64,000 nucleotides of DNA from Marsupella aquatica (lineage: Eukaryota; Plantae; Marchantiophyta). The position numbers were made by a program, and so were the translations under genes. Below the pieces are notes generated by a model. The model did no database searches and had not been told where the DNA came from. It saw only the letters and a program-made list of their open reading frames with translations. The stretch lies in contig OZ316895.1 in assembly GCA_973895155.1 (NCBI GenBank), positions 12,655,929 through 12,719,928 of the forward strand, read 5' to 3'. Below are positions 1 to 54,648 of this stretch, piece after piece. Position 1 is the first letter of the stretch. Every line of letters starts with the position of its first letter.

Positions 1-3000
1 TTAGTTCACGATGACAGACACAGACGCAATAGAGACGATAGAGAAGCGGAAGGGCGGCATGAAGGTTCTCGAGGGTCTCCACGGGATAATGATGGTACGC
101 GAGGCAAGGGTAAAAGTAGCATGTGGCGCAAGGATGGTACCCCTTCAGAGATGGGAGGTGATGGCCTTTCCTCACCTCGACATGATGCTCGAGGATCACC
201 CTCTTCTAACCGGATGGATTATATGTCTTCTCCACATTTGGATGATCAACGATCGCCTCGATACTACTCCCAAAGGTCGCCGTCTCATTTGGACAGAAGC
301 TCTGGTGCATCAAGAGGAAAGACAAGCCATGGAGATTGGTTTGAACCAAGCAATAGTGCCAGCAACTCCAGTGGTCCTCAAAGGCGTTCACAAGGGCCTG
401 GCTTGCATATCTCTGATCGTCGAGACCGCTCAAAATGGAATTCTGGTTCAGAAGAAGAGGCGAAGGGTGGGATGTTTAGAGGTAATCGTGTGACGGATGA
501 AGGTAGAGACAGTTCACTAAGTCCGCACCGACTCAATGAACAGCATCTTCTTGTAACACAATCAAAACCTCCTTTGCATGGGCAGGACAGTTTTCCCAGA
601 GGGATGGGAAATCGAGGGATGATGGAGGCAAGAAGTGACCGTGGAGGTTGGCGGGGGGCACTTTCAGGTTTTGATGGTGGTCCATTGGACCATCATGGTC
701 CAGATGACTTATCACCACGAGACAGAAATGACCGAGTGCGTCGCATGCAAATGAACAGGCCACCAGGAAGTCCCATGGTTCGGTCTCAAGGTCCTCAAAT
801 GTCTTCATTACCTGCTCCACCTCTTGCACCCCTCCCACCTCCTCCTCCGTTTAGGCCTGGCATTGATAACCCTGCTGTCCTTGGCCCTATGAATGGAAGC
901 TTTGATGAGGGAGGTGGGTCTCGTGAGCAAGGACGGGGGGAAAGAAAAGGGGGACCTCATCGGAGAGGTGATCAAGGTGGTATGGGTCCAGGGGAAGGAT
1001 GGAGGGGTGTAAACATGGGTGGTTGGAACTCAAGAAATCAGGGGCCTCTTCCAGGCAACGGTTTTGCACCATTCCCTCCTCAATTCGGCCACCCGCCGGC
1101 TGGTGGAGGTGGTTTCCCTGGTATGGGTCAGCAATTCCCTGGCCCCCCAATGTTTCCTGGCGGTGGAGGGAGGCCCCCAATGGATATGGGCTTTGGCGGG
1201 GGCAGATTCTTGGGTCCTGGAGGTCATATGGGTGAAGGTGGAGATGGATATCTTGGTCCTGGCCGAGGAACTGGATGGCATGGACCTGGAGAGGTCGACG
1301 AAGGGCGAGGACCACCGCTTATGGGCCCTGGTGATGGATGGGAAGGTCCAGGTCCTCATGGGGATGATCGGCATCGACATGGTCGGATGGAATGGGAGAG
1401 GGGTGCACCCATGGGAGTCCGTAGCTGGGAGAGAGATAGAGAACGTGACCTTTGGGAGGCACGCAGGGATGGAGCTCCTGACTTCATGCCTCATCGCTCT
1501 CAGATGGACCCTCCGCCACAAAATCAAGCATTTCCTTCACCTGGTGGTGGCTGGGGTATGCCACGGGATTGTCAGATCCCTAATGATCTTAAGCCTCGAC
1601 AAGATCGGCAACCGTTTGATATTCAGGAAGTGAAAAGGAAGCCTGATGGAGGACCTCCTAAGCCAAAGAAACAAAGTGGTCGACCAGTTTCTGCAACTGA
1701 AGGGAAGCTTTCAAAGTATGCAACGTCGACAATGCAGTCCGTTTTATCTCAACTGGAAATCTCACCTGACCTGGCAGGACCAGAGCTATATGCTCAGTAC
1801 CGAGCCTTGTTACCTCGTTCGCCATCTGGAAAACAAAGCACTCCTCAAGACAAGGAAGATTCAATCTCCGAGTCCGACGATGAGGACTTGAACTTAGAGG
1901 TGAACGTCTTTCATTTCTTAAATGAAGAACAAAACGAGCTTTTTCCCTTTTATACAGCCTGCATCAGCCATCCCGCAACTGTCTCTGAAGCACCCCCTTT
2001 CCCGGTCAGACGTTTGTTGGTGATCATGGTCTCAAGATCAATCCCCTTTCGGTATGTTTCGAAAGAAACAGGGTAAGAGTCGTAAGGTTTGCATGACATC
2101 TGTGACATTTACAAACCTAACAGTTACTTCTTATCTGGAACAGGCGGATCCCGAAGGAGAAATTTTCATCACAGGTCCGAACCTGCTGGCAAAGCTTCTT
2201 CCACCTCTTCCAGATGACGTTTTCCAGGTTTGAATACCAGTACATTCCTTCCAAGGCCAGGTTTTCCCGTGATCACAGCGGCCGGAGATGATTGGCGAAA
2301 TAATACTTAGTATCGATGGGCAGGTGTCGCCTTCCTTTTGGTGTTTTGGTCTTTTCGTCAGGGAGGTCGTTCGTTGTGTTAGACAGCTGTTCCGTGCAGA
2401 ATTTTTGGAATTGGTTATTTTTAAATTCATGATCCACTTTTTTCTTGCGATGTATGGCTGCAGGAAGCTTTAAGGCTTTATAGGAAACCAGATACAGAAA
2501 ACCGGGTTCAAAAATCATCAAGGGGGAGCTTTGTTTTGCCTTTCGATCCGTCGACCATCAAAGTACCATCTATTTCTATGAGGCTTGATAGATTTAGTGC
2601 CGGTACAGCCAAAGGTGGACCTCATGATGGGATGGGAGGTTTACGGGATCACCTGGAAGGAAATGTGATAGATACAGAGTTTGCAGATGACGAAACACGG
2701 AATTCCGTTGAGAAAGGGCAAGGGGGCCTTGAACTAGATGGTGCTGAGATAGAAGACACGGGAGGAGAAACTATGCAGGATGAATTCATCTCGTCTCATG
2801 TGGAGGTTGCTGAGTACAGTGACAGAGAATTTGAAGCAGAGATGGAAGATACTCTGGAAGAAGATAGCTTTAAAGACATGCAGGTGGGTGGAGCTGTGTT
2901 TGAAACATTAGATCCTGCTGATGAGGACAAGGATTCATTGGACAATATTATGAATGTATATAAAGAATCAATAGGCCCTGGTAACAGCCTGGGTGAAGCC

Positions 3001-4395
3001 AAGGAGTCTCTTACGGAGACTGATGATAATCGGCAAGCAATGGATGCACCAAAGAGTGACGCTCCTGTAGCAGAGATGGAAGATCGAATATACAGCGTAG
3101 TTGCTGAAGCTGATCAAGTGGACAACTTGGTTGTTGAAGCCGATCATGTGGACAAGGTGGTTGTCGAAGCTGATCAAGTGAACAAGGTGGTGGTTGTCGA
3201 AGCTGATCAAGTCTACAAAATGGTTGTCGAAGCTGATCAAGTAAACAAGGTGGTTGTCGAAGCTGATCAAATGTACAAAATGGTTGTCGAAGCTGATCAA
3301 GTGGACAAGGTGGTTGTCGAAGCTGAGGAAGTCTACAAAATGGTTGTCGAAGCTGATCAAGTCTACGAAATGGTTGTCGAAGCTGATCAAGTGGAGAAGG
3401 TTGTCGAAGGTGATCGCTTGGACAATGTGCTTGTCGACGCTGATCAAGCGGAGAAAGTGCTTGCCGAGGCCTATCACGCTGTCAAGGCGGTTGTCGAAGC
3501 TTATCAGATAGACGACGTGGTTGAGGAAGGGGATGAAGTGGGCAACGTAGTAGACAATGTGGTCGCAGAAGTTATTAAAGTAGACAACATGGTTGCTGAA
3601 GTTGATTTTCGAGATGATGTAAATAGTTTTGTTGTATCACAGGGTGCAGTAAATAACGACAATACTGCTGAGCCAGAGAGGAATATTGTGGTTGAACAGG
3701 AGTCAAGGACCTCGGTAGAAGAGACTGGTGGTCTGGAAGTGCTACAGTCGTCTGAAACGTTAGCAGGAGAATTGGTGAAGCCTCAAGTTGTGCAATTTGT
3801 AGTCGGGGTATATGAAGAGTTCCCTCCGGAAGTCCCAGCCTCCAAAGAGGTGATAGATGTAGCAAAAGACATTGATGAGGAAACTTTGAAGGCAAAGCGA
3901 GGCACTGGAGTAGAGCATGAATATCAGGATGCTCCCGCCAGTGTCGACAGCAATGAACAGATTAAGGGTGTTGAAGAGGCACCGGAGCCCATGAACGGTG
4001 AAGGTAATGGGCTTGATGTTACGCAAGGTCCATCGGAAACTGCGCCAAGCGAACCCATCCAAAAGTACCCACCTGAAGAAGTGCTGACTACTGTGATTGA
4101 GAATGATGTGAGGATGGACACTAATGGAAAGTTGAAAGAGATCGTAGGGAACTCTCCAGCACCTGAGCAACCTGCCATAGAAGAGCCTCAACCAGAGCCG
4201 CTTACAAGGCTCAGAAAGCGAAGGGCCAGTAGTCGCTTACTGGCTCAACAATCAGCAGAAGCCCAGGTGGTGCCTTTGCAAGAGTCTTCTGATCGTTTGG
4301 CGAGTCAAGGGTCAGTTGGGGTAAAGAAATCTGGTTCTAGGGGATCAACTAGGAAATCTCAGCGCAAGTCAAAGCGCCGAGGAAGTACACATTGA
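1..4395 (+). CDS. 3' part of a large low-complexity protein resembling plant HIZ2/At5g53440 (ZC3H13-like m6A-writer-associated protein); exons <1-1899, 2144-2227, 2464-4395
   Basis: Frame is open from base 1. Phase-0 GT-AG junctions (gag|GTGAAC at 1900, CAG|gcg at 2144, cag|GTTTGA at 2228, CAG|gaa at 2464) join LSQLEISPDLAGPELYAQYRALL to LLPPLPDDVFQ|EALRLY, which resembles the conserved C-terminal block of At5g53440-like proteins as I recall it. The gene model is better supported than the name. Confidence 0.7.
3097..3510 (+). repeat. Coding 30-bp tandem repeat encoding about 12-13 VVEADQV-x-K-x decapeptides
   Basis: Repeated gttgtcgaagctgatcaagt(g/c)-(g/t)acaa(g/a) units, visible in the ORF translation. 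Confidence 0.95.
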
Positions 4396-5296
4396 GACCT
4401 CATTTAAGTAATCTTTTGGTTTTTTCTTTTTTAAAAATATTGCATCATATTGTTGACTTATCATGGTCCTGCTTTTTGCTCTACAAATTCTGATGTTCTA
4501 GGTCCATAGACTGGGTTCTGTCCTTGATATAGAGAAGGGTGAAGTTAAAGTTGCATAAATATTATTCATGGTATGGAAGGAACTTCATGAAATTGAGAGT
4601 GTCATCAATAGTGATGACAGATTTCAAAGTCTTGCAAGTCTCCTGTTTGGTCTACTGTGTATTTAATTCTGTTCCTTGACAGTCAACTTTTGCAGTTCGT
4701 TCAAAGTCAAAGCATAATTGGTTTAGGTACTAGGTATTGACTTCTATTGTTGTGATTGGAGGTCGTGTGGTGAGGTCTCATTCTGTTCCCATTTTCTCAG
4801 CTGCTGGTTTCCAAGAAGTCAGAGAGGCTCGACTCTTGCCCGGAAGGTAAGAGCAAATAGTATTAGACCGAGCTCTGTTGCTCCAAATTGTCTTTTCTCT
4901 GCATACTGTGGTGAGCGCAAATCAAACGAACTGTCCCTCCAAGGTGTCTAACTGACCCTACACTTCCTTTTAGCTAGACACTCCCTCTAGTCAGCCAAAT
5001 TTATGAACAGATTCGTTTGAAAGATACGGTTGCCCATGCAATATAAGTATCAAATACCCTTGCTATACTGCTGTGGTTCCATGTGCGAATGTCTGGAGCC
5101 ACTTTTGACTGTACCAGCACCTTCAACCAAATTCTGTCGTCATTGCTGTGCTCATGCTAATGATTTCCTTGCTACAAGTGCTGAAGTTCGCTGTTGCTTG
5201 TCTAGAACCTGCACTTCGACATCCTTGAAACTTTATGTACCTACTCATCTCAATAGTCTGACTGGGCAATGAGTTATCATTTGGAGACTCCATGTT

Positions 5297-5490
5297 CCTC
5301 GGAAGATAAAGCTTGCACCTTACTCGTCGGAAGATATAGCTTGCAGGTGTTTGTAGAAGATATTCCTTGGAAGATATAGCTTGCAGGTGTTTTTCTGAAG
5401 ATATTCCTCGGAAGATATAGCTTGCACCATACTCGGAAGTTATAGCTTGCAGGTGTTTGTTGAAGATATTACTCGGAACCTATAGCTTTG
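5297..5490. repeat. Short degenerate tandem repeat (cggaagatatagcttgca(ggtgttt) units)
   Basis: About six copies of the ggaag(a/t)ta(t/a)agcttgca core with variable spacers. Confidence 0.85.
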
Positions 5491-6619
5491 CAACAAATGG
5501 TCGATGATTGAGCACTTCCTTCCGTAGTTTGTTCCAGATTGGCATCCTTGCCAATTGTGCACGGATTTGTTCATTTAGCTACAAAAAACTACCAATACTT
5601 ACCAATAGCTTGGAAAGAACTTCAACCTGAGGTTGTAGCTGTTAAGATTCGCAAAATCGTTTGTAACAAGAAGATTCCTATACATGATGAGTAGCTTGGA
5701 AAAATTCCACCTTAAACTTTGCTGTGGTTTTGAAAGCATTCCGCCAGTTGAGCTGGCGACTTTCACTTCCAACTGAATTCATTTGGGCAAGTTCAGCATG
5801 TGGCTTGGAAAAATTTTGATCTTAGTAATTGTTGCACTGTGCTTGATTTGTAATGAACTCAAGTTCCCACAATATTTGACAAGATGCTTGTCTATCACAA
5901 CATTTGACAGCATGCTTGAATACAATAGCATGCTCATCTTCATTTTTTGTCTTGTAGTGATGTGTAAATGAATATTGCATAGGATATGCCAAATAAAAGT
6001 ATATTAATATACCTAATTGCAGGGGAAAAGTACAAGTGTTCAAGTATTGAAAAGTTATGAATACTAACTTACTCTAATGATACTCCAATCTATCAAAAGT
6101 TGTGCACATAACTTACAGAAGATACTCCTTTTCCTTAGCTTAACAGGCAACTACAATAAAAAACCATAACTAAGCTTACCAATTAAAAGTATGAGGAGGA
6201 CTTAAAGCAGGAGGTGCTCACATCCTACACTATCAATTCTCTGTCTCTATCACTAGAATTGGCAAAAATTCCATAAATTTGCTAAAGGGGGGTGGATGCC
6301 ATGTATTGAAAAACAAAATGTAGAGGACAATGAGAGCTCTAGAACAGCAAGATAAAAAAACATTTAGAGGGGTGCCAAAATAATTTTAGATCTAAATCAT
6401 ACAAGTCATTCTCATTGTGATGACACATTAAAAAATAAAAATATATAACAAAAAATCTTAGTAAGAAAAATACTGATTTAAGGTTGATTGGCCATATATA
6501 ACAGTGTCAGAAAATTCTGTCACAACATTTGACAAAATGCTTCAATATATAGTTGTAACCCATACAAGTCACTCTAAAACATTATATGTTCTAGATCAGT
6601 CCAAGATATTATGTGTTAG

Positions 6620-6915
6620 TCAGATTCTTGAGCTATTGAGGGTTCTAAACATACAATTTCCTTCCTTCCATCTGTGTCTCCAGAATATTATTTGTTACTC
6701 AGATTCCGGAGCTAGTGAGGGCTCAAACATACAACATTTCCTTCCTTCCATCTGTGTCTCCAGAATATTATTTGTTACTCAGATTCCGGAGCTAGTGAGG
6801 GCTCAAACATACAACATTTCCTTCCTTCCATCTGTGTCTCCAGAATATTATTTGTTACTCAGATTCCAGAGCTAGTGAGGGCTCGACATACAACATTTCC
6901 TTCCTTCCATCTGTT
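6620..6915. repeat. 80-bp minisatellite, about 3.5 copies
   Basis: cttccttccatctgt recurs at 6661, 6741, 6821 and about 6900 with near-identical intervening sequence. Confidence 0.95.
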
Positions 6916-7560
6916 TGTGCACAGGAGAAAGGGAGGAAGGAGAGTGAGTGGGTAGGTGGCAGCAAAGGCCAGGTGCTGGTGTAGTAATGTTACAACATAT
7001 CATTTTTGAAAATGCATAACTCCTTAACCATAAGTTGGGCTGATCCGAGAGAGTTGGATTTGATGAGATCTATGGATGCAAAAATTAAAACAATAGATAT
7101 AAGTTGATGTAGAATTTTCTAAAAATGGATGAAGATTGAGTTTTGTAAGGAAATCAAAACGTCTAATAAGCTAATCAAACAAGGGTCCCCTTAATTTTCA
7201 GTTGGCTTTGCTGAGACAAATGTAATGTCTTTCCTGTATATTAAATGCTCACCTGTTTTTGTGTTAAATTGTCCTGGGTCGACTGGAATCCTCAGACATT
7301 GTGGTCCATCCGAGCACCAGTTTCAACCAGCAGTAAGTCCGACATATGCATAAGTAAACTGGCTTAGTTTGCACATTGATTATTCATTCACTTTCATTGC
7401 AATGCAAGTAATGACATCTACTACAAAGTAACACAACACAGTAGATGTCATTCTTTCACTTCACAACACATTATTAGGTTGCTCTTGCAAGTTTTGTAGT
7501 AAGTGAATGTTTGGATGGGATCCCATCCCAGCCTGGTATGGCTTGAGCACATAGATATAT

Positions 7561-7817
7561 TGGAGGGTTGGTTTTAGCAGATTGAAGGCCAAAGAAACCA
7601 GGAACATATATTCAACAGCCAAGGGTTTTTCCCACCAGTATGTTAGTTTGGAATGACCATAACACTTCTCCAGTATGTAAACCTGCTCTTTTCAATCATG
7701 TGGTTATGTTATGACATACTGATAGAAACAACCACCTCCTGTGGGATAAATGTTCATTGACAATTACTTTTGGCCTTCCACCCGCTAAAACCAACCCGCT
7801 AAAATTAACCCTCTACC
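7561..7817. mobile_element. MITE-like foldback with about 30-bp imperfect terminal inverted repeats
   Basis: gggttggttttagcagattgaaggccaaa at 7565 versus tttggccttccacccgctaaaaccaaccc ending at 7797 (reverse complement gggttggttttagcgggtggaaggccaaa). No clear TSD. Confidence 0.55.
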
Positions 7818-8997
7818 AATTGCATAATCAGGGGGTTACTTATGTATATATTCTGGGATATCACTTCACCTAATTTTACCACCCTTATTAAAAGGGGGAT
7901 TAAAAGTAACTATTCTAAGAATATTATTTGTTTTTCCTTTGAATGATTTATTTTAGCTTATGCACATGCTTCTTACCTATTTCTATAGTAACCCCCTCGA
8001 GGTCCCATAGCCCACAACACATAGATGAGAAACTCTCGAGCATGCTGCTCTCGCCAGCCTCCACCTGCAGTTCCATGCCTAGGGGCTGCCACTTGCATGC
8101 TCCTCTATCCCTCCCCACGGGGAATCACTCTTGATTGCCTCTGCTAGATCCAGGCCACCATGCGATGTAAGTAGGGCCCAACAAAAGCTGATCAATGTAC
8201 TGCTCTTCAAATTACATTCAGAAATAGGACATCCTACAAGATACAGTGCATCTGAGTCGTGACAATGTTAGTGCAATCAAACTTACTAAGAATCCAGTTT
8301 GACATCCAGGTAGACACGGTCGGGACCTGGTCTGGTCTTGTCGATCAGGTATGGTCCCGGGTATGGTCTACCTGGGCGCTTTCCAGAATCAGTAAATGAT
8401 GTGGTGTGGTCCAAAATAGTGCCCGCTGAGTTAGAGGATGAGGCATTTAGCTGTTGTGCCATGGCCGTGGCCTTCTTATGTGAAGGGCACTCAGGGGACG
8501 TGTGCCCAAGAGAGATGCAGCCTTAGTGTCTGGTGGAAGGCCCGTTTCAATACACAATGGTAGTTTAAGTAGGTCAAATTCACTAGAGACGAGGGTTTGC
8601 ATGAAGGAGTAGAAGTAGGCCGGGTCAGTAGTAGAAGCTGTCTCGTACACGTTTGTGTTACTTAACAAAAAGTAGCCCGGGTCTTAAGCGAACTTGTTTG
8701 GAAGGCAAGATATCGCAAGCCCAGCAGCTCGACATCTATGGACTGTTGGTCAGATGAGTTTTGATTATTTCCAACGCTGCCCTTTCTTACAATTTTATTA
8801 CTCTGCGAGTCTTAGTCCGCATCTGAAAAATGATTGTTTTTAAATTTTGATTGAAATCTTCAGATGAAACGCATTAATTAACAAAAGATCTCGGAGTACG
8901 ACGTTACGTCTCTCTCCTTGTCATTCTCATTGCTTGTGTTCCTTTCTTTCTTTCTTTCTTTCTTGATTCTGTTCTTACTCTTTTCCAATGTGATAAC

Positions 8998-9443
8998 TGT
9001 TGGAACTTTCAACAGCATGGACCGGCTAGGAATTGAACCTAGGATCTCCCGTGTACATCGTAACTTTCAACAGCATGGACCGGCTAGGAATTGAACCTAG
9101 GACCTCCCGTGTACATCGTAACTTTCAACAGCATGGACCGGCTAGGAATTGAACCTAGGACCTCCCGTGTACATCGTAGTGCTCTACCACTGAGCTACAG
9201 GCCCTTTGTGGGGGTATCCATCTTCGTTCGAGTGTGGTTCATTTCCAACACCCACCCTTGAGCCGCACTCGCTACAAGGGAAACTCCTTTTCTTTGGCTC
9301 TGATACCATGTTGGAACTTTCAACAGCATGGACCGGCTAGGAATTGAACCTAGGACCTCCCGTGTATCGTAGTGCTCTACCACTGAGCTACAGGCCCTTT
9401 GTGGCTGTATCCATCTTCGTTCGAGTGTGGTTCATTTCCAACA
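8998..9443 (-). mobile_element. TRIM (non-autonomous miniature LTR retrotransposon) with tRNA-derived LTRs, Helenus-like
   Basis: LTRs 8998-9250 and 9309-9443, both TGTTGGAA...TTCCAACA; 5-bp TSD ATAAC (8993-8997, 9444-9448); 58-bp internal region with minus-strand PBS TGGTATCAGAGCC (9296-9308) and PPT AAGGGTGGG next to the other LTR. Confidence 0.93.
9134..9204 (-). other. tRNA-like sequence inside the TRIM LTR (second copy 9329-9397); probably not a functional tRNA
   Basis: Minus strand GGGCCTGTAGCTCAGTGGTAGAGCACTACGATGTACACGGGAGGTCCTAGGTTCAATTCCTAGCCGGTCCA: perfect D stem (GCTC/GAGC) and T stem (CTAGG/CCTAG), A and B boxes, 6 of 7 acceptor pairs including G3:U70, eroded anticodon stem. Confidence 0.85.
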
Positions 9444-10435
9444 ATAACGCTTGAATCAGCAGTAAGACCTTTAATGAGCGGCTTGAATTGGATCCCGTAT
9501 AACAATTGCCCAATGAAACAATAACACGAGAAGTGCTGAGACAGTATTACAATCATCATTTGCAGAAATGCTTGCACATCTGCAGGTCCTGTAACGGTGG
9601 TCAAGCGTTGCACGCACTTAACCTGGGTCAAGAGACTCAACCACATCGACTCCAATAGTTTAGAAACGACTGAAATTAAAGATCCATATAATTAGTCGCA
9701 AAAGTCATTGACAGATTACGCTTTAGTCCGGTCAATGGGACTCAGTATACCATCACCAGTACTTGATTACACTAATTAGTCGATGATTGATTGACTATTA
9801 CCTGCGTTACATTTGCTTTACTTCCGACTAAAGTAGCAAGCAAGTGCCGACCCGGTCATCTCGTATCCAGGAATTTGGAAGCCGCACGTAAGGAGCCCAA
9901 AATCGGTGGAAAGAGGTGGGAATTAAGAGGCAATTTAAGGCAACGACCCATTCAGTTAGTGTACTTGCTATGTCCGCACTCATAACACGAAGAAAAGCAG
10001 CTCTGGTGCTGAGTAAACCAATACTCAGTCAAAATTGCTGAGTAATACTTGTCACAATCCATATTATAATATTGTTTGGAAATCTAAACATCGTGCTCAA
10101 CTTTGTAACCATCTGCAACATTGTCCCTTCTGTGCGTCTCCTCAAGTATGTAAAGTGTCAATATATATCCCCCATCACCTTCACAACTACCAAACCAAAA
10201 TCAGCACTCAAGTCATCCAGCTAACTCTCGATCATATCTCTTCACATTTTGTCAGTCACGTCGGACTTGATCCGGCCTTTCACCTCGGATTGCAAGACTC
10301 CAAGTAAAACTGACAGATTCTATCCCAAAGTGCGTCGTATGAGCCTGAGCCAGCGAATACAAGCGGTACGTACCTAGCTCCTCAACGTCCAGGTGCGGCT
10401 AGCTTAGGGTTCAGTCTGTTCACTAATTTTGATCG

Positions 10436-11084
10436 ATGATGGCCAAGTCACTGGTGCTTGTTGGACTGCTCCTGGCGACAGTGATGGTCTACACTGCTCT
10501 CGCTAGCGATCCCGACCTGACCACGTACTGACTTCAACGTCACCAATCCGACCGCGGAGGATTTCACCTTCAGAGGATTCCGTAACGTTCGACCGCCAGG
10601 CAAGGGCATTGCAATGCCAACTTTCGCCGCCTTCAATTCGAAGCCCGCTCTTCTAGGACTCAACGGGCTGGGTCTCACAGCCGTGCTGTTCGAGTTTGGT
10701 CCAGAGTCACAGATTGATCCCCACACTCATCCTCGTGCAACGGAACTGTTCTACGTGCTCTCAGGGAAAATCGGCGTGGGATTTGTGGACACGGCCAACG
10801 AGCTGTTCGAGACGACGCTACAGGCGGGCGATCTCTTCGTCTTTCCCAAGGGAATGCTGCACTGGCAGCGCAACAATGGTCACGGAACGGCGGCAGGCTT
10901 CTCGGCACTCTCCAGTGAGAACCCTGGTGTTCTCAGCATTGCCAAGGCACTCTTCACCGGCGGCGACACAGGCCTCCCCGACATTGTTCTCAGTACCGCC
11001 TTGGGTATCAATGCGAACTACCAGCAAATAGACGCTCTGAAAGAGGCCGTTGCTGCCAGGAACAACGTGACCCTCAAGTGGTAG
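10436..11084 (+). pseudogene. Germin-like protein (cupin_1), frameshifted just after the signal peptide
   Basis: MMAKSLVLVGLLLATVMVYTALASDPDLTTY* (stop 10529-10531); the germin sequence resumes in the +1 frame (DFNVTNPTAEDFTFRGF...PHTHPRATE...LFVFPKGMLHWQRN) to the stop at 11084. Confidence 0.85.
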
Positions 11085-11476
11085 TGTACAGCCAGACTGA
11101 GCGCATTGGTACAGGCTGAACTGATCCTGAAACGGCTTCCGATCCGGACGAGGAAGTCACGAGTTTATCTACACAGCAAAATTGCATTCGACCACATAAT
11201 TATCTAGAATCTGTGCAGGTCCACCGACCCACGACAGATGTCTTCATCATTCATTTGAGTCGATTAGGAATCGAAGCAATGTAAGCAACGTAAACAAAGT
11301 ACAGTACAGCCAGTAGAGTAGCTACTAAGAGCTCGAGTGTGCTTCCTTACAGAAGAATTATGCCCTGCCGTAGACAGCAGTCGAAGGTCGCCCTACATCG
11401 ACGTTGGTACTTGCTTAGAGAAGTCTTCTTCATATATAGAAGCTCTGAGTTTAGACGTTGGTACTTGCTTAGAGAA

Positions 11477-12199
11477 AGAAATATACACACTTTTTATATA
11501 CAAAGGGACCAAACAGAATACAAATGAACAAACAAAAGAGGGCCCAAGTGGACAAAACCAATCGAAAAAGAAGTGAGCAAAAGGGAACCACTAAACACCA
11601 AGAAAGAGGAACTAAAAATAAGAAATGAACAATAGGGAACCCCTAAAAACCAAGAAAGAGAGAGAGACTAAAACTAACCCAAGCGGACCGAGGTCCTCAT
11701 CATTCCTACCGATTGTGGCAAAAAGCTAATGGTCCACATCAAGAGTCAAAACTAGATCGGCAAGTGGGATTGGAACATCCTCAAGGGGAGCTAGCCGCTG
11801 CGGAGGCACACTAGCACCCACTGTAAGAGATCGACGATAGATGGCCCGAGCTTGAGCACGCTGTAAGGTGACTAAAATGCGTTGGCGAAAGTGCGTGGTC
11901 AAAATAGAAAGCGGGGGTCCGGTGGGACCCATTCGGCCATGAACATCCCGGGCAGCTTGCCGAAGAAGCCCATCAAACTGAGGATGAAGACGCCCAAATA
12001 GCTCCACAGCAAGGGGGAGGAAGCTGTCGGATGAAGCTCGTGCAGCATATTTGGCCTCCTTCGTTGTTGCCGCACGTGACGCTGCTGCCCCTGCCGTAGT
12101 TGCCGCTGTCCCAATGATGTCTTGGCGCAATGGGTTTGCCACCACAACATCTGCCAAAGTACGTTGACCCTCACGGACCATGGTAAGATCCACCCGTAA
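11477..12199 (-). mobile_element. 5'-truncated non-LTR retrotransposon with C-terminal restriction-like endonuclease (CRE-like clade)
   Basis: ORF segment RVD...ADVVV...TKEAKY...FLPLAVELFGRL...FRQRILVTLQRAQARAI matches the RLE-domain pattern; followed by a T-rich 3' UTR; flanked by the 9-bp direct repeat CTTAGAGAA (11468-11476, 12200-12208). Confidence 0.75.
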
Positions 12200-12269
12200 C
12201 TTAGAGAAGTCGTCTTCATATATAGACACTCTGATTTCAGAGGAGAAGTACTAGGATAATCGCTGTCTC

Positions 12270-12720
12270 GGCACAGGGTTACTAGGTTTCATATATAGGC
12301 CCTCGGCACAGGGTTACTAAGTTTCATATATAGGCCCTGAATTTAGGTGAGAAGACGCCCTGAATTTAGGTGAGAAATAGAGGATACTCAATGTTTGGGC
12401 ACAGGGTTACTAGGCTGTAATATAGTGTGACCAGAAAGTGAATCAAAGCGGGCACAGGGTTACTAGGCTCTAATATAGTGTGACCAGAAAGTGAAGCAAA
12501 GCGGGCACAGGGTTTTACTAGACTCGGCAGAGGTTTACTAGGTTATAATAGTGTGACCAGGGCACAGGGTTTACTAGACTTGGCAGAGGTTTACTAGGTT
12601 ATAATAGTGTGACCAGGGCACAGGGTTACTAGGTTGTAAAAGTGTGACCAAAAAGTGAAGAAATTTGGTTCCTGGGGTACAGGTTACTAGGCTGTAGTCC
12701 GGTGACCAGAAAGTGAAAAA
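12270..12720. repeat. Degenerate tandem array of ggcacagggttactagg...tatagtgtgaccag units
   Basis: About ten copies of the (c)agggtt(t)actagg core with 35-55 bp spacing. Confidence 0.85.
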
Positions 12721-15634
12721 AAGCTACAGCCTGCTAGGAAACTTTTCTAAGCAGTTTGGGAATAGGCCCCGGTAGGTTTAGGGTTAAGGGCCGGGTCTAG
12801 AACCCCAGCCCAGACAGTCCTTATACACCTAAATAGAGTCCGGAATAAAAATTAATGGGCAAGACTTTCTGGGCACTACATTATGGATATAGTGGGGCCT
12901 CCAGAAATCCTTACAAACTGGTAACTTTGATTCCATACCTAATTTCTGGTTCTAAAACGGGTGTGCGTATACGTGTGGGTGGGATCATGGAAGTTCTGAT
13001 TATCTACTTGGCCCCTGGTTGTCCACTTTGTGACACTGCTTTATTCCCCACTTTATTCCTCTCTCCCTCCTTGTGTGGGTCCATGTAGGATCAGTGGGGG
13101 GTCACACTGAAATGGGTTCCCTACAATGAATGTATGTCACTATTAGGGTGGGGAGAGTCTACTAATTGTTCTTCCTCATTTCTATTTACTCATTTCTATT
13201 TCCTCATTTCTATTCAAGACAAAAGAAAAGGTTTACTTCAAATATCCTGCAATTGATCATAGTTCATTTTTCTGAAAACCTTTGAGAGATATTAATTGTC
13301 ATGATTATTATTACTAGCTTGGGTGCCCTCTTTGAAAGTAAATAGAGGTGAGTGAAACACACTAGGTAACTGAAGTAGAATCAAGCCTGTTGCCTGCTCA
13401 TCAATTCCCATCAATACCACATGAATTCACGTTTCATTGGTTTCCGGTGACTCTTCACACTTGTCCCATTTTCAAGAACTCAACCTGCCCCCGATCCCCA
13501 TTTTCCACCCGCACCCCCAACCTTGTTACACCCCAGAGTTACAGTCTACAGAGTTCGCCTTAGACCCTAGCCTGCTCTGAACATGAGGTTAACATCACAA
13601 TTATATAGTTAGTTTTGGACATGTTATATATCATCTACAGTGAAGAATTGCTGGAAAATGGCTCTGAGTGACCTCTAGGTTTGCAATTAAAAATGGCTGC
13701 ATAGGCTCACATAAGCAGCATGGATTTCAGCTAAACTTTCTACTTTTCTCAGATAATACCACAAACATTTTTGTCTGACGGTGATGGCACATCAAAAGCA
13801 TCATGAGGTGTACTGTGCTACATGGCAAATGCCCACCATAGCCCAATAAAGCCAATTGTTCTGTTATATCACTGAGTGCACATGGCAAATGCCCACCATA
13901 GCCCAATAAACCCAATGGTTCTTTTATATCACTGAGTGTTACCCAAGTGTCCTTTTATATCAGCTGTGCTGTCTATGTATCCGGCTGTTGCTTTTTGATG
14001 TGTACTTCCCATGCTGGTAAAACAGTTTTTACCGGCAAAAGCATTGTACACTCTTGCCCTTTCCAAACGTTTCTTTGCCATTTAAAAACATATAAACAGC
14101 ATTGTGGAATGCCATCCAAGCTGTTGGGTTTGAAAGGAGATCCCATCCGGTTCATGTGAGAGGCAATACGCTTACTATGATTTTTGACCTCGAGAGAGAT
14201 TGCCAGTATGAAAGACCATCACGTTAACATTTTCACTCGTTTAAGTCAAAGGCCTACTTTGCTGATGGAAGGATTGAAGTGTGGATCGCACGTTGTATCA
14301 GGATGACAAGAGTTCGACGCAACTCATTTTTGGGTGTCGACTAGCCAACGAGTGGAGCATGTCGACTATGTATGTCTCGCATGTTTGTCTTCGAGATTAA
14401 TATAGTATCCAGTACATGACGTGGCCTGTAACTAAACTCACCCACAATTTCTCCAGCCTAACACACATTTTCCGTAGCAAGCTGTTGTGGATGAAGCTAA
14501 TCCATTTGTTTGTGTGGCTCATGGTCGAAACAGAAAGCTTTTACGGCAGTGATCTGAGCCCCATGCTGACCTTTTGCGGTACAGACGAAAGGTTTATAAA
14601 GCTCAAAAGCGGATAGAGTGGCTGGATGTCCTTGCTTACTGCTGCTCTTCCCTACCTACCGAATTGGCCACACAGAACTTGGCCGACCACGGGGTCCTTC
14701 GATGTATAATTCAGCAGATCAGTAGATTCTTAAGAACAGAACTCGTCGTTGTTTTATTCCATCATCTGCGCTTCCACTCGTTTGAAACGCCTTGGCTTGA
14801 GCTAGAAGCCATTTCAAATGGCAGAGAGAAGAAAGGAAAGTTTGCAGCTAGGGTAGTGAATCGGATATATTAGGCACAGGCGAACCCACATACAAGACAT
14901 TAATGTCCCATTCAGATCTTACAAGCACGGCATATGTACTTCTCTCGCCCTTGAGGCCAACTAGGTAAGTCTGCTTGCTACAGCAAATCATTTATTGAAG
15001 AAGGAGAACGCCATTACAAACAGAAAACGTTTTGAGAAACTTCAAAGCATTTAAATGAATTAACGGCAAATGCTTTGAAAGTCACAGGAAATCACACTTC
15101 AGTTACACCTACTATCAAAGTTTCCATCAGGTCGTCAGGCAGTACAATTGTCAAGAAAACACGGTACGAGCAAGTTTTGAAGAGGCTCTCAGCCCTTCCC
15201 ACAAGTACTGAAGGTGTACAAAATCCTGCAAATCTGATTTCAGAAGTTCAACAGTTGTTGTAAGGGGATAATGAGAACATCACTAGAAAGATAAAATTGC
15301 ACATCATTCAATCCCCTATGGTGGCAATCAGTCAGGTGTAATGGACAGGTGTTTGGATGTGGCCACCGGCACTGAGTAGGAAGACACTTCTTGTCAATTT
15401 TCTACCGCATTTACAGTACATTGAAACATTTAAGCAAACTGGTGCCCTTATCATAGCCGTCATCCACTCACCGGATGGATGGAAACACTGAAAAGGAAAG
15501 AATGTATAGTTACAGAAACAGCAGCAGGCTTGCAAACCTATAGATACGACACAATGGGGATAGGAGGGCTTCTTTGCACCTCTTCTGGTCTTCTACAACT
15601 GTGATTTAGATTGATTGGAAAACCTGGAGGCTGT

Positions 15635-19275: not shown

Positions 19276-21916
19276 CCCAGCTGTGTCTGTCTCTCTCTCC
19301 TTCCTGTCCCACTCCGACGCACTCGAGGCAATCACCAGGAGATTGCTGATTCGTCCCCAACACCGATCACCAGACAATTCCGTTGCTAGTCCGAGATGAG
19401 CGAGGCACACCTCTCCCTCAAAATGACATCCAAATAGAATCCGCAATCTACCGTACCACCGACTAAGTTTCCCTCTACCGAATCTCTGTCTGTCTACTCT
19501 CTACCTCTTCAACCGAGATCAAAGGGTACGAAATCCTGTCGCCCCGCACAAATACACAAGCTTGATGGATATAGCCGAGTTCCCAGCCATCAACAGTGGC
19601 ACAAAACCAGTGAGTAGTCAATGCGTCAACCCACAGCGTTCTCTACTCAACATTCCGAGCTCCCATCCACAGCCCAGGCTCACTCGCCCGTCGTACAATG
19701 CCAATCCACAAAAAGTTTCACAGAAAGCTTCAGACGCAAGTGACGACTTTGCAGTATCATCAGCGGTGTGGCATCACGGCTGCTGTCGAAGTGCCAGCAG
19801 AGAGCTCACTGCGCAAATGAGTGACCGACGTGAGGAGCTCCAGAGCAGAAGTGACATAAAGCGTGCCTGGGCTTCAATCCAACCGCGCCAACGCAGCCAG
19901 CGTAAGTGGAGGCATTCATTCGACCGACCGATCGATCGATCGATGGGCAACGCAGAGTGCCGAATTGCCCTCTCCAGGACGTTTCGCCTTGTGGGTCATG
20001 TGTCCGTCTGTCTCTCTCCCACTCGGAGTCTGGGCAGCAGACAGCCACTGGTGGCTGATCAACGAGCGAGGAGAGAGGGGGGATGAAGGAAAGGAAAGGA
20101 AGAGCAAGAGGGGGACTTGGAAGTTGGAGTGGACCGCGGGAGATTTGGACCACAGGGCAGAGAGGAGCTTGATAGGCAGAGCGCAAATAGATAGATGAGA
20201 AGCAAACACGTATTGTCCGTCCCCCCCGTTTCCCCGCCTTTCCCTTTCGCTTTCCCTTCCCCCGGGCCCCGCCCGATCTCACACGACTCGGAACTAGTAG
20301 AGTAGTAGTAGTAGGGCGTCTCAAACTTAAGCATTTGGAATTCCGAATGGCACCCGGGATTTCACAGTCGCGGGCCGCCCGGATCAGGTGGTCGGCCCAC
20401 CGATTTGGTGACCGAAAAGTTTTTACCGGGTTTTTTTGGTCACCCGGTCGTCCGCTATGGACTAACCCTGGGTTGGATAGGCAGGTGGCAACTAACTGAA
20501 GCAGCAGACGAGGGCGACTCGAGAATCAAAACCGAACTAGGTGGAGCACTAGACGGGACGAACACGAGAAACGAACACGAACGCGAGACTAGCCCAGACG
20601 GGACAACTGCTAAGAAACAAACACGAACTCGACATTCAACTCGAGGGCCTCCACTTTTCGTATGATTGCGTGGATCAGTCTGTTTCTGTGCTCTCGATTC
20701 GGACGCAGAAAGCAGGAGGACGAGGAGGAGCAGCAGCAAACCTCTCTGTCGCGGGTTCTCTATCGCAATTCTGCGTCAAGGGAAAGGATTCTGGCTGTGA
20801 ATCCGGGAGCTATGGAATTCGAGGATCCATGAGCAGGAGGAGAGCGATTCTAGTTGCTGGAAAGGTTTAGGGCGTGATGGTGGCCGGTCGATGACAGAGT
20901 GATCGTTGTGATGTCGAATTTGGAATGGCTGCTCCACCAGGTGAGAGATAATTTCGAGGGCTGCAGGGGATTAAGGGGTTTCTCGGTTGCGTGAATCCCC
21001 TTCGAGTGTTTGAAGAATAATCTATCCAGGGGATCTAGTTTCCTGTCTCTTTCGATGAAGTTTCTTGTCTCTTCCGATGAAGTTTCCGCCCTCTGTGTAG
21101 TGGTTTGCTCTTCAAATTGCCTGCATAAATGTATGCTTGAAATTTCTGGAGAAATGAACCTTAATGGCAGCTTTACGATGGGCCGTATGTGCTAAACTTT
21201 CCACGCCTGTTCAATTTCTTTGTGCGCAGACGTTAAGGCGGGTTGAGAGTGAGCGATACAAGTGCTGGTCTGCCCGAATAGATTGAGATTTTCGTCGTCG
21301 TTGAGCTGAGATTACATTAGCTGTGGTGATCAAAGATGGCGACAGAGAGAGCAGCAAGATGCTTTTGCAACCACGGCCACGGGCGCGCCTATCACCTTCG
21401 AGCGCCCTCTTCCCACCGAGCTCAAGTTTGCAAAGTCATGTAAGTAGAGCTTTTCTTTGGCAAAGTTATTCGAGTTTGAACCTCGTTGTATCATTTTGCA
21501 TTAATGTCTGCAAGTTAATTAATTAGCCCTTAGATTAGACAGACAAACATGTGTCCCTAAGATGTTTTTCTCATAATGAAATTTATGAGTGAGACGAGTA
21601 GCAACATGTACCTGGCTGATGTCGAGCATTAAATTCAAGTTAATTTTAAAATGGTCCTTAGACTGGTACTGCTCCATCTGCAGTAGCTAGTGGAACTTCA
21701 TGACGATCATCTACGCGTTGCCTTCTGGACAAGAGGAGCGTCTAGGGGGGTACCTCACTTGATCCTCATTTTACCACATTATCGAAATTACATCACCGAA
21801 AGCTAGAGCCCAGGGTAGAAGGTCAAGACTGTAAGCAAACAAGGAACATCCTAGTTTAATTGGGTAATGACAATGTCCTATCGTGAATTGTGTTTGCAGT
21901 AACTTGATCTGACACT

Positions 21917-23460
21917 ATGCCTCGAGTTTCACAACGACAAATACAGCTCAGGGCTGTAAAACAGAAACTTGAGCTTAACATTGCCCTCCTCAGCGACAGT
22001 GATGAGTCTGACGAAGGTGAGAAGGTGTTTCATAAGATGCCTGGACAACTGAAGTGTGCAGGGATTGGAAATTTCAGTAATGAACTGTCTGATGATAGTT
22101 GCCTCCAGCTTGATTCATCTGGAGACAGTGACCATGACGAGTATGACCAAGACGACACAAGACCTGAGGACTTGCTAGAGTTGTATTTTGTGCTATATAA
22201 CACCAGGTATTTCATGCCTCGTCATGTGAGTCTGAAGTCCAATGACTTTGCCACTCAATTCTTCCATAACCTGCCAGAACTACTTTTCAGGCAACTTACA
22301 AGGATGAATAAGAATTCCTTTTTCCATTTGCTTGACTTGGTATCGACTCATCCAGTCTTTCAGAACAGGTCCCAATTTGAGCAAGCTCCTATAGTCAGGC
22401 AAATGGCAGTTTGCCTTGACCGTCTTGGGCATGATGGTAACGGGGCTTGTCTTAACCATATGATCCCTACCTGGGGTGTAAGTACCGGTTCTTTGGTGAA
22501 TTTTTCGAAACGATGCTTCTGTGCACTTGAATCTGTTCTTGCAGACCAGATCCAATGGCCAACTAGGGATGAGCGTCTTCAGCTGAGTGATGGTTTTGCC
22601 AGACTTGGATTCCCTGGATGCATTGGTCTCATAGATGGGTCTCTCCTACCTCTTGCACAAAGACCTGCTCTCCATGGTGAGTGCTATTACGACAGGAAGT
22701 CCAGGTACTCAGTTAATGCTCAAGTGGTTTGTGACAATCGACGCAAAATCCTCTTCATGTTTACAGGTCTGTGTTGCTCCTCACTTCATAACCAGTGCTT
22801 GTATTCTGTCACTGGCATGCTCTTTAACCATTCAATTCCGCTTAGCGTTTAATGTCTTTATCTTGACTTTGTTACAAATCACTCCTTACAGGAATGCCAG
22901 GCTCCTGTAGTGACCTCACATGTGTGAAACGCTCCCCACTATTCCAGTACTGCAATGGAGTTGGTGGAACACTTCTTTTCGATGAAAATCAGTACCTGCT
23001 AGGTGACAGTGGGTACCAAGCTCTTCCCCACTTGGTCTGCGCTTTTAAAAGGTCTGACTTCTGTCAAGACAAGGAGGACTTCAATACTTGCATTGCAAAG
23101 TGCCGGGTCACAAATGAGCACTGTATAGGGGTACTAAAATCCCGTTGGCATTCACTGAAGGAGGTCCGCACTCAATTGAACAAGAGTAAGGACTCTCTCT
23201 GGATGATACGGTGGGTTTCCTTGTGTGGCAAACTGCATAATTACGTTATGAGCATGAACGACGAATGGTCTGAATCTGACATGGAAGAGGATAATTGTGA
23301 TGAGCCCCCAGCTGTAGTGGAGGAGGCAAACATAGTCCCAGACCCTGCACGTTCCTCAAGGCGGAGAACTGCTGAGGCTGGTCACGCTATTTTACTCAGG
23401 GTTATGGACGATGCTCTCACATTCTACCGCCAACCAGGAGGATTTTTGCACCATGACTGA
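21917..23460 (+). CDS. Harbinger transposase (DDE_Tnp_4/HARBI1-like nuclease); exons 21917-22766 and 22892-23460
   Basis: GCIGLIDGS, YYDRKSRYSVNAQVVCD, YLLGDSGY and NEHCIGVLKSRW supply the D-D-E triad; phase-1 intron 22767-22891 (GT...CAG) joins the two ORFs with no internal stop. Confidence 0.92.
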
Positions 23461-45119: not shown

Positions 45120-45277
45120 GCTTCTCTACTTCTGATGACACAGGTGTGAGGAGCTGGTTCCTCCTCTTGAAGGGATGACGAGGAATGAGTAGCGCACGAG
45201 GCCAGAAAACGAAACGAGAGAAAGGAGACCATACACTTCTGAGACACAGATGATCAAAGGCCATGGCTGCCACTCTC
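45120..45277 (+). repeat. 158-bp direct repeat, copy 1 (5' leader plus first codons of the SEP-like gene); copy 2 at 47285-47442
   Basis: gcttctcta(c/g)ttctgatgaca...gagacacagatgatcaaaggccatggct(gc/at)cactctc occurs at both positions with scattered substitutions. Confidence 0.95.
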
Positions 45278-47285
45278 GCAAGTCTTCCATTGGCATGAGC
45301 CTCACAGATGCCCTCGACCAGCTCGTCACCAACAGCACCATCTCGCCTCTCCTCGCTGTCAAAGTGCTGATGCAATTTGATAAGGTAGGTCGGTGGTCCG
45401 CCCGGCAAGCCACTCTCTGTCTCGCTCTCCCTTCTTCGTTCTCCTTCATAGTGCACATGACCTCATATTTTTCTTCCTGCTCAGCCGATGCGCATTGAAT
45501 AGGGCGGATGTGAAGTGTACAAGCTTGTTGGCAGCAACCCACCAGATTACGTTCATGCTACGATTTCAGTTTGATCAGTACCTCCTATAACATTGAGAAG
45601 GCGAAATTGAGGTGTGCTGTTGGTCATTTGGTCCGTGTAGATCGCTCTTCGCCTATCCGGCAATCTGCATTCTTGCTAGTGTTACGCCGCACGATCGCCG
45701 TGTGAGCATCGCCGCATAATTCCGCTCCTGCGATTTGTGTGACACAATTTATTCTGTCGCGAGGCCGGTGTCAAGAGTAGATGGCCGAGAGCATATCACG
45801 GTAATTATCTACCAGGAAGGCCTGAAGATGACGTTGATCCTCAAGAACACTGATGATACAATGACCGTGGAAGGGTGTGCACATTTCACTAGTCTGACGA
45901 TGTACTTCAGAATCTCAAAATCCTCGTGCCAGCTCTATGTGGGAAACGAATTGTAGCTTCTTTACTTATCGTAATCGTATCAGTCAGATCCATCCACAGA
46001 AAATTGCCTGATATTCGTTTCTTTTTGCCTACCGAGGAATGGTGGTGAGGTCTGTCGATGATCACCCAGATTCCTTGGACTAGATTATCCACCATATTGC
46101 ATCTGCCTGTTCTGTATCCAGTGCCTAGATAAAGTTGCTCTCGTCTTCAAGCGTTAGAGAAGTAGAAAGGAACCTTAGCAGTTTAGGTTGTATTTAGAAT
46201 CTCTGGCCGTGTCGCATACGCTGAAGAATTTTAGAGTTCCTGAACTAGTGTCCCTATCCAAAACATGGATCTTCTTTTGTTTAGCTGAATCACATGTATT
46301 TTCGCCTGTTAGTGTTTCAATGAAGATCGCCTACTTTGGGACTTCAGACTATAAGTTACAACACTTGCTTGTGTTTGTCTTTAGGACCTTTGTTTAACCT
46401 ATTGTGGAGAATCCGGAGTAACAGCAGTCCGTCACAAATGTTTTATATACTTTTCTGGTTTTGTTTAGGAGTCCCACTCCAGACTAAAAATTACAACTCG
46501 AGCTATTTGTTTGACTTTAGGATTGTTGTTTACAGTATTGTGGAGACTCCGGAATATCAGCAGTGAGTCACAATTGCCTTATATACTTTTCTAGTTTTGT
46601 TTGGAGTCCTGTAAAAGCTTGCTGATGGCCTCTTCACATTTTCGTCTGCAGTCTATGAATGATGCGCTATCGCAGAAGGTGACGACGAAGACAAATTTCA
46701 AGGTGAGAGACGTCTGTACTTTTCTTGTCCAGAATCCAGGCGATATTTCCACATACCCACTTCTATGTAAATCCAAGGTTTATATGAATAGCTTAATTTT
46801 ACTTGTTTCATGAATGGATTCTATCCCGAAACGATGCAAGACCCAAACCGTGAAAATGTAAAAGATTACCTTGTCGAGTAAACCCAACTAGTTGAATGCC
46901 TCATTGTTAAGTTGATTCGATTCTTTGTACAACTTGATCTGCTAAATGGTACAATTCTGTGAGACAGCTGGAGATCCTAAGAGCGAGAATTGAAGCCTTT
47001 CATGAGTAGAGGATGCACGATGTAGCTTTGATCAGTCTCCCAGATCTAATCAAAATCTTTTGGTTAGGACTGAAAATAGCTTTAGTGCTTCTCCAGCGTT
47101 GCCATTATCATCGACCCACCGATCGATAGAAGGGATGAATGTTGTTCCTTCCGTGAGAGGTTGGGGGTATTCTCCCTTCATGACAGTGCCCCGTTCCAAT
47201 TTGGAAGGGTCTGGAAGATCAGGAGAGGAAGCTAACGTCAAGCTTGCATTTTTTATCAGACCTTAGTATGCTCCCTCGCGCATGG
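45277..47285 (+). pseudogene. Partial genomic duplicate of TFIIA-gamma (most of exon 1, intron 1, exon 2 at 46652-46702, part of intron 2; no exon 3)
   Basis: Colinear and highly similar to 59931-62042 including introns; encodes [36 protein letters not shown] and [17 protein letters not shown]. Confidence 0.95.
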
Positions 47286-47427
47286 CTTCTCTAGTTCTGA
47301 TGACAGAGGTGCGAGGAGCTGGTTCCTTCTCTTGAAGGGATGACGACGAATGAGTAGCGGACGAGGCCAGGAAACGAAACGAGAGAAAGGAGACCATACA
47401 GTTCCCAGACACAGATGATCAAAGGCC

Positions 47428-48075
47428 ATGGCTATCACTCTCATCCAAAATCAGCTCTGTCTCTGCAACTCCAATAGCCAATCTCGTCCTGATTCTGCTC
47501 TTGCAAAATCAGTAACACCGTTCTTTGAATTACCCACCTCTTCTTCTTCTCCTGTCCCGTTGCTGCAAGGAGTGCTGTTTGGAGCTGCTCACTCTTCGGC
47601 GATTCATCCGATTCGGATTTCTAAGGCCGTGAGCTCGGTAGAGAAGCCGTCTCGTTGGCCACGGTCTCGTCATGACGACACCAGCATCATCGCAAATGTC
47701 CCAAGAAGTGGCGCCCCAATGCTCGTTGGGAGGAGGGGACGTTGTAGCAAGATGGAAGGAGTCGGATGGGTTCAAGGGGAAGTGGACAGTTCAAGAAGAG
47801 TGACCATGACTAAAGCCACTGGTAGTAACAAGGTCGTAATAATGGTGGATCCAGTGGAGGCCAAGCGACTTGCTGCTGCAGAGATGAAGGCAATTCAAGC
47901 TCGTGCCAAACTGAAGAGGCAAACGGAGATCGAAGCTATCAATGGTGGCTGGGCCATCATTGGGCTCACAGTAGGGATCATCATTGATGGTTACACTGGG
48001 AAAAGCATCCTTCTTCAGATTGCAGGTTATCTTGATTCAGTTGCTGATTTCTTGACACCACTCACATCCTCATGA
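47428..48075 (+). CDS. Intronless LHC-like stress-enhanced protein (At4g28025/SEP5-like)
   Basis: 215-aa ORF with Ser/Pro-rich transit-peptide-like N-terminus and C-terminal MVDPVEAKRLAA...EIEAINGGWAIIGLTVGIIIDGYTGKSILLQI, an LHC-motif variant (ExxNGxxAxxG). Confidence 0.8.
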   Translation: MAITLIQNQLCLCNSNSQSRPDSALAKSVTPFFELPTSSSSPVPLLQGVLFGAAHSSAIHPIRISKAVSSVEKPSRWPRSRHDDTSIIANVPRSGAPMLVGRRGRCSKMEGVGWVQGEVDSSRRVTMTKATGSNKVVIMVDPVEAKRLAAAEMKAIQARAKLKRQTEIEAINGGWAIIGLTVGIIIDGYTGKSILLQIAGYLDSVADFLTPLTSS

Positions 48076-54300: not shown

Positions 54301-54648
54301 CTTTATACACTATTGACATTTAATTACAACGAGGACTGTTAGGCTGCACTCTTTTTCCTTTAGCACTCATTTTTTTCTCTGCTCCATTGGTAGAGTTTTT
54401 ACTAAGCTAGAGTTGATAAAGGTTTTTTAACGAGGCAGTCTACCTCAATTGTACTTATATCATGTATTTCCTATGAACATGATATAATAGGTATAGTCTA
54501 TGTTGTCTATATAGTTGTCACTATATATCCAAAGGGGAGTGTTAGACTCTACCTTTGACTGGACGACCGGACCAGCCGGTCACCCTGGTCCCACTATATG
54601 TACTCCTATTCCCGACTATATATAGGTTCATTCCATTCTATTCTCACA
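48337..54648 (+). mobile_element. Full-length Ty1/copia LTR retrotransposon, Bianca-like, coding region disabled
   Basis: 109-bp LTRs 48337-48445 and 54540-54648 (TG...CA, three mismatches); TSD GAAAT both sides; PBS CGTTATCAGCACGA; PPT AAGGGGAG; domain order gag-PR-INT-RT-RH. Confidence 0.97.
49527..54213 (+). pseudogene. gag-pol of the copia element with at least eight nonsense codons and one frameshift
   Basis: gag LTFPALEIDGGNYLEW, zinc knuckle CHACGMTNHLARNC, protease CIIDSATTH, integrase WHARLGHP/IHADVCGP/RVDNAGEF/QNGLAE, RT LYGLKQSGR/IYVDDL, RNase H FEDNAVCI/IKGDRVKHIAPKFF; frame changes near 53230-53250. Confidence 0.95.

Follow-up and report, generated by a model that had tools for sequence, protein, structure and literature searches.

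The window analysed here, a 64,000-nucleotide stretch of the Marsupella aquatica contig OZ316895.1, carries a short LTR element at 8998-9443 on the minus strand, and neighbouring open reading frames encode a cupin, a polyprenyl synthase and an LPA1-like protein. The polyprenyl synthase exon shares 94% identity with Calypogeia fissa, 85% with Marchantia paleacea and 78% with Riccia (best 120 of 642 matches), which on this one gene makes a leafy-liverwort host likely. The germin-like cupin gene (10436-11084, plus strand) is separated from the insertion by about 1 kb; near 10525, as judged by eye, its signal-peptide frame no longer lines up with its cupin frame, so the gene may be frameshifted.

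Further along the window, a DDE_Tnp_4 transposase (21908-23460, plus strand) is split across two ORFs. A Copia element (48337-54648, plus strand) has 109-bp LTRs that are 97% alike, a 5-bp duplication (GAAAT) and a primer-binding site (PBS) of another type than that of the short element, and its integrase and reverse transcriptase pieces are spread over several broken frames. A 401-aa ORF (56986-58191, plus strand) gives a weak tyrosine-recombinase match (E 4.6e-4, below the Pfam cut-off) and possibly belongs to a tyrosine-recombinase mobile element. A segment of about 2 kb occurs twice (45120-47442 and 59924-62045, 93% identity), the first copy being flanked by 158-bp direct repeats without TG..CA ends.

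Structure of the element and its tRNA-like unit

The element measures 446 bp, or 330 bp without the extra repeat units in one LTR, and is bounded by two copies of ATAAC (8993-8997 on the left and 9444-9448 on the right), a 5-bp target-site duplication (TSD) whose match has a chance probability of about 0.001. Its LTRs have TG..CA ends, with a terminal inverted repeat of 8 bp. The 5' LTR (9309-9443, minus strand) is 135 bp long and consists of a 46-nt leader, a 69-nt tRNA cloverleaf and a 20-nt tail, the leader closing with a CAA triplet at -4 to -2 relative to the cloverleaf. A 12-nt PBS (9297-9308, minus strand) abuts the CA of this LTR and begins a non-coding internal region of 58 bp (9251-9308, minus strand), which ends in a polypurine tract (PPT; 9251-9260, minus strand). 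We take the PBS to be the usual plant type that matches the 3' end of initiator tRNA-Met (iMet). The exact 12-nt motif occurs only once in the 64-kb window, and the combination of CA and PBS was seen in 0 of 200 shuffled windows. The element lacks a long ORF and, at less than 1000 bp and with no coding capacity, has the dimensions of a TRIM (terminal-repeat retrotransposon in miniature).

The initial annotation, made from the letters of this DNA, had drawn the same boundaries, TG..CA ends, TSD, iMet-type PBS and 58-bp internal part, and the sequence agrees on all of these. The PPT that it proposed does adjoin the 3' LTR, with one pyrimidine (a T at 9254) inside the tract of the window copy. 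In each of four sequencing runs a purine stands at 9254 in 77-95% of contig depth, and since most aligned copies carry it, the PPT of the family is likely purer than that of the window copy. The length of 135 bp given for both LTRs applies to the 5' LTR only. The 3' LTR (8998-9250, minus strand) extends to 253 bp, that is about 137 bp plus two additional 58-bp units, through a tandem triplication at 9004-9178 (minus strand; Tandem Repeats Finder: period 58, 3.0 copies, 99% matches). Beginning in the anticodon loop and stopping shortly before the LTR end, each unit covers the cloverleaf's 3' half, B box included, together with most of the LTR tail. One of the three units deviates at one base, which speaks mildly against an assembly artefact. 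Because a freshly made element should have identical LTRs, slippage or unequal exchange likely produced the one-sided triplication once the element had inserted. Outside the triplication, a comparison of 129-131 nt shows two adjacent substitutions and a 2-nt indel between the LTRs. At 9212-9213 most aligned copies, with 40 of 137 rows listed, agree with the letters of the 5' LTR, so the changes there are likely private to the 3' LTR of the window copy.

Covariance searching placed Rfam RF00005 in both LTRs, in the sense of the element, at 46.3 bits (cut-off 29; E 2.5e-8). The tRNA-like unit of the 5' LTR (9329-9397, minus strand) fills 69 of 135 bp, about half of the LTR as had been proposed; that of the 3' LTR (9134-9204, minus strand) is 71 nt long. 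The A box (TAGCT..TGG) follows the pattern TRGCY + YGG and the B box contains GGTTC, which are the box definitions used for the Helenus class of TRIMs (PMC10886601). These boxes make the unit a predicted RNA polymerase III (Pol III) promoter. The D stem forms 4 of 4 pairs and the T stem 5 of 5; the acceptor stem includes G3.U70, discriminator A73 and a U6.C67 mismatch. The anticodon arm is 14 nt long in the 5' LTR and 16 nt in the 3' LTR, against the usual 17 nt, and its stem is broken. The description of intact boxes and D and T stems beside a degenerate anticodon arm is thus confirmed. In energy folding the cloverleaf is not the minimum-energy fold and does no better than shuffled sequence (z -0.3 to +0.4 in 5 of 5 stretches), so that the tRNA call rests on the covariance model. 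ARAGORN calls just one of the two units, that of the 3' LTR, as tRNA-Tyr(gta).

The proposal that promoter stems are selectively retained receives some support from other copies, in which all four rows with indels inside the cloverleaf (12 of 13 rows were listed) place them at positions 32-34 and 43, in the anticodon arm or variable loop. Since the anticodon arm is both shortened and variable, the likely role of the cloverleaf is that of a promoter and not of a tRNA in translation. A tRNA-Ala origin, which had been read from G3.U70 and A73, is weakened because Helenus-1_AmAr, a similar fungal element, carries A3-U70 at that pair (by eye; PMC10886601); in addition, ARAGORN reads the 3' unit as Tyr, and a source tRNA was not found. 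Matches to plasmid and phage tRNAs (8 and 79 records) indicate no isotype, the best phage tRNAs being Met, Thr, Asn and Phe at 76-79% local identity. No 5S rRNA match, as would mark a Cassandra or Ajax element, appears among the six Rfam matches up to E 1. A T-run does not follow the tRNA-like unit. A scan for bacterial promoters and terminators, which does not apply to Pol III, returned 0 sites.

Other copies and the empty site

Contigs of four public runs were aligned to 8500-10000 (289, 443, 194 and 449 contigs). Over the element, summed contig depth was about 1,000-13,700, compared with 18-160 in most bins of the flanks, an excess of tens- to hundreds-fold that measures depth and is not a copy number. 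Among the 24 of 452 loose-end rows listed, contigs came loose at the exact LTR end 9309 in all four runs (11, 13, 6 and 14 contigs), and at 9443 in runs X1 (7), X3 (4) and X4 (6). Beyond these points the flanks are unlike one another (consensus agreement 0.42-0.6), as expected for independent insertions or solo LTRs. The element therefore belongs to an interspersed multi-copy family with many other junctions. Of the earlier expectation that other copies would carry their own TSDs, the existence of the copies is borne out, with contigs diverging at the exact LTR ends; their TSDs are illegible in the contig summaries. C>T and G>A changes dominate between copies (31 of 61 places in X1). Further loose ends at 9204-9206 in runs X2-X4 indicate a subfamily that has the same cloverleaf and a different leader directly upstream.

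An empty-site test was performed with contigs aligned to 9426-9800. One 230-nt contig of run X2 follows the window over 9444-9603 and has 70 other letters in front of 9444; of the 30 letters listed there, 27 match the left flank at 8963-8992 by eye. A similar contig in run X4 matches the left flank at 13 of 16 letters. Runs X2 and X4 thus contain a related haplotype in which the site is empty, with one ATAAC where the window has two. LTR elements are not lost by clean excision, which makes the empty form the state before insertion. The possibility that the cloverleaf is a tRNA gene conserved at a syntenic position, on which the initial annotation would have given up its reading, does not hold here: the empty site and the many contigs that leave at the exact ends identify a multi-copy insertion instead.

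Comparison of the empty haplotype (X4) with the window gives 14 mismatches in 357 letters plus 6 gaps, against 2 in 129 between the two LTRs. As the empty haplotype diverges more than the LTR pair, the data fit an insertion later than the haplotype split. The suggestion of near-identical LTRs and a recent insertion was overstated, in that at least four changes have occurred since insertion; it stands to the extent that the split from the empty haplotype came before the insertion.

Runs X2 and X4 also carry filled-junction contigs, which overlap the element by just 27-29 letters, the bridging rule being 31 letters. Both runs are from organism B, in which the empty haplotype is about 96% like the window, and X2 has in addition a full haplotype identical to the window over 9444-9800. 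The presence of empty and filled forms together in organism B could reflect a hybrid, a polyploid or a mixed sample. Run X3 gave only the filled junction in the 57% of the run that was read, and the contigs of run X5 end short of the junction. All these findings come from X1-X5, the shares in X6-X21 (organisms C-J and air metagenomes) being small. Beside the element, X3 contigs leave the window sequence after 9494 and rejoin it at 9681, and this gap at 9495-9680 suggests a replaced or further-inserted segment.

Relation to Helenus, Cassandra and SINEs

Helenus elements (TRIMp3; Kojima 2024, PMC10886601) are TRIMs with tRNA-derived sequence in their LTRs, and a 5-bp TSD is typical of the plant and fungal families. 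Judged by its sequence, the element is of Helenus type: it carries all the sequence-level features of the class. The initial identification of a TRIM with a tRNA-derived LTR, which had already pointed to Helenus, agrees with the Helenus features described in that paper.

The comparisons below with published Helenus consensus sequences were made by eye, with neither an alignment program nor a tree. Helenus-1_SMo, from the lycophyte Selaginella moellendorffii, has an LTR of 120 bp, an internal region of 85 bp, a total length of 325 bp and a TSD of 5 bp (PMC10886601). It resembles the liverwort element in layout, in size (325 against 330 bp without the extra units) and in TSD length. In both, the PBS abuts the LTR, with 11 of 12 nt alike, and the last 8 nt of the LTR, the CAA before the cloverleaf and G3.U70 are shared. 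Leaving the anticodon arm aside, the two cloverleaves have 48 of 55 positions in common. The likeness is confined to the cloverleaf arms, LTR ends, PBS and PPT; the leader, anticodon arm and mid-internal region are dissimilar, and Helenus-1_SMo has a T4 run after the cloverleaf where our copy has none. Because the leader and internal sequences are unlike, the element is, as set apart by eye, a family separate from Helenus-1_SMo.

Among fungal families (PMC10886601), Helenus-1_AmAr of Amylostereum areolatum (Agaricomycetes) agrees with the element at 47 of the 55 positions of the cloverleaf beyond its anticodon arm, and shares the 5-bp TSD, the TGTT..ACA ends and a PBS beginning TGGTA. It differs in its 209-bp LTR, in two additional D-loop bases and in having A3-U70 for G3.U70. 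Most fungal Helenus families prime on tRNA anticodon loops, unlike the element. The oyster family Helenus-4_CVi agrees at about 39 of 55 positions outside the anticodon arm. When the published consensus sequences are compared with each other (PMC10886601 Data S1), Helenus-1_SMo and Helenus-1_AmAr are alike at 53 of 55 such positions, again by eye; the main text of the paper holds no discussion of this likeness, and the word 'horizontal' occurs there solely in a reference title.

Cassandra TRIMs are likewise small non-autonomous LTR elements with a piece of a Pol III gene in each LTR, and provide a working model for transcription of the element (PMC7215508; PMC10886601). They carry 5S rRNA with terminators and measure 565-860 bp, where the liverwort element has a tRNA-like unit. 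T-run terminators lie in the LTRs of both Cassandra (PMC7215508) and Helenus-1_SMo (PMC10886601). Pol III transcription has been demonstrated for Cassandra (PMC7215508; PMC10886601), whereas for the element we infer it. Like tRNA-derived SINEs (SINE2), the element has a tRNA head whose A and B boxes can serve as an internal promoter. However, it possesses LTRs, a PBS, a PPT and a 5-bp TSD and has no tail, which indicates that it moves by the LTR route.

Proposed transposition cycle and alternative explanations

We consider it very probable that the window holds one copy of a multi-copy, non-coding Helenus-type LTR retrotransposon with a 5-bp TSD, likely transcribed by Pol III and likely helped by Ty1/copia. 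In the proposed cycle, TFIIIC would bind the A and B boxes of the tRNA-like unit in the 5' LTR, from which Pol III transcription would start, at or near the CAA directly upstream of the cloverleaf; its place at -4 to -2 falls in the -1 to -20 range in which plant tRNA genes are described as carrying such a triplet (PMC7544208). Since no T4 occurs on the element strand of the window copy until 112 nt past the 3' LTR, the RNA is predicted to pass through both LTRs to that point and to total about 515 nt, though where it ends is a guess. The host initiator tRNA-Met would then prime at the PBS. For the first strand jump, the redundancy at the termini would be that of the cloverleaf and LTR tail, and the second strand would be primed from the PPT. 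A Ty1/copia helper would contribute the enzymes for copying and integration. The 5-bp TSD and the iMet-type PBS make such a helper likely, by an argument also made for fungal Helenus (PMC10886601). An autonomous Copia partner with a matching PBS was not found in the 64-kb window; the Copia at 48337-54648 was rejected as the helper on account of its different PBS and unrelated LTRs.

Pol III transcription of Helenus has been proposed and, according to Kojima, validated for no Helenus (PMC10886601). This, together with the missing T4 terminator in the window copy, leaves room for Pol II transcription of an ordinary TRIM that acquired, within its LTR, a tRNA or SINE head now riding as a functionless passenger. 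We regard that as distinctly improbable: just 46 nt lie upstream of the cloverleaf, scant space for a Pol II promoter, a CAA stands at the plant Pol III start position, and both promoter boxes and the D and T stems are kept whereas the anticodon arm decays. A host tRNA-Tyr gene, working or recently duplicated and with repeat-like flanks, would account for the ARAGORN call at 9134-9204 and for an Rfam score above the cut-off. It has next to no probability given the complete frame of LTR, PBS, PPT and TSD, the broken anticodon stem with arms of 14 and 16 nt, the call of only one of two copies and the absence of a T-run after the unit. The empty site rules out a functional tRNA gene at this locus, where a canonical anticodon arm, a terminator and a conserved position are all lacking. 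The cloverleaf also ends in ..CCA, 20 nt ahead of the PBS, which would suit an element that supplies its own primer. The cloverleaf 3' end, however, matches the PBS over just 3 nt (4 with an added CCA) and at 5-8 of 18 positions, the PBS is of the standard iMet type, and no such complementarity was found for the Helenus elements treated by Kojima either (PMC10886601); self-priming is refuted at the level of the sequence and retains a negligible probability.

A further reading would supplement the Helenus-type, Pol III-driven interpretation and not replace it, and as such we think it unlikely: besides being a promoter, the cloverleaf might act as RNA, being folded and either cleaved by RNase P or Z or recognised in the particle, which would set the ends of the element RNA. 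Relative to Helenus-1_SMo (PMC10886601), pair 5:68 (C-G/A-U) and pair 51:63 (A-U/G-C) have by eye both changed and are still paired, and both lie outside the promoter boxes. Another means of making an RNA end would also help a copy that has no terminator. Yet this is a comparison of two sequences, in which a like pattern would result from separate capture of different tRNAs; a mismatch lies in the acceptor stem, another fold is predicted to be better than the cloverleaf, and cutting the 5' cloverleaf would wreck the template.

A still wider reading, which is doubtful, would unite the liverwort, Selaginella and Amylostereum elements in one lineage, either through a crossing between a basidiomycete and an early land plant or through persistence since the land-plant ancestor; the cloverleaf would then be retained, through compensatory stem changes, both as a DNA promoter and as a folded RNA by which the template is defined or protected. 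Common descent of the three cloverleaves is a lead only, because the counts were made by eye and phage tRNAs already reach 76-79% local identity; convergence on the tRNA consensus is a possible source of the likeness.

Neither the pattern of B box, LTR end and PBS in exact-match scans of viral and metagenome contigs, which are non-plant collections, nor the D-arm/T-arm pattern in an exact-match scan of metagenome contigs, a collection not built from plant genomes, gave any occurrence. A liverwort record of the Helenus type was not found in the open literature on Helenus/TRIMp3, liverwort or Marchantia TRIMs and Calypogeia retrotransposons, and Repbase, subscription journals or the repeat libraries of genome supplements may hold one. 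In the accessible text of PMC13570524 and PMC12859917 Helenus is mentioned in passing only. Table S1 of PMC10886601 has one Viridiplantae row, Helenus-1_SMo from Selaginella. Relative to those records, the element extends the range of Helenus from one lycophyte to liverworts, as a second plant lineage and the first bryophyte; the class is already published, and what is added is a new family in a new plant lineage. At about 330 bp it lies near the small end of the range of 311-1263 bp in that paper. The filled and empty alleles are direct evidence of mobility of a kind absent for the plant Helenus family in PMC10886601, and the locus offers a usable case for testing whether Helenus is driven by Pol III. 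Such copies can also pass as tRNA genes, as in the ARAGORN call of tRNA-Tyr, and will inflate tRNA counts in liverworts.
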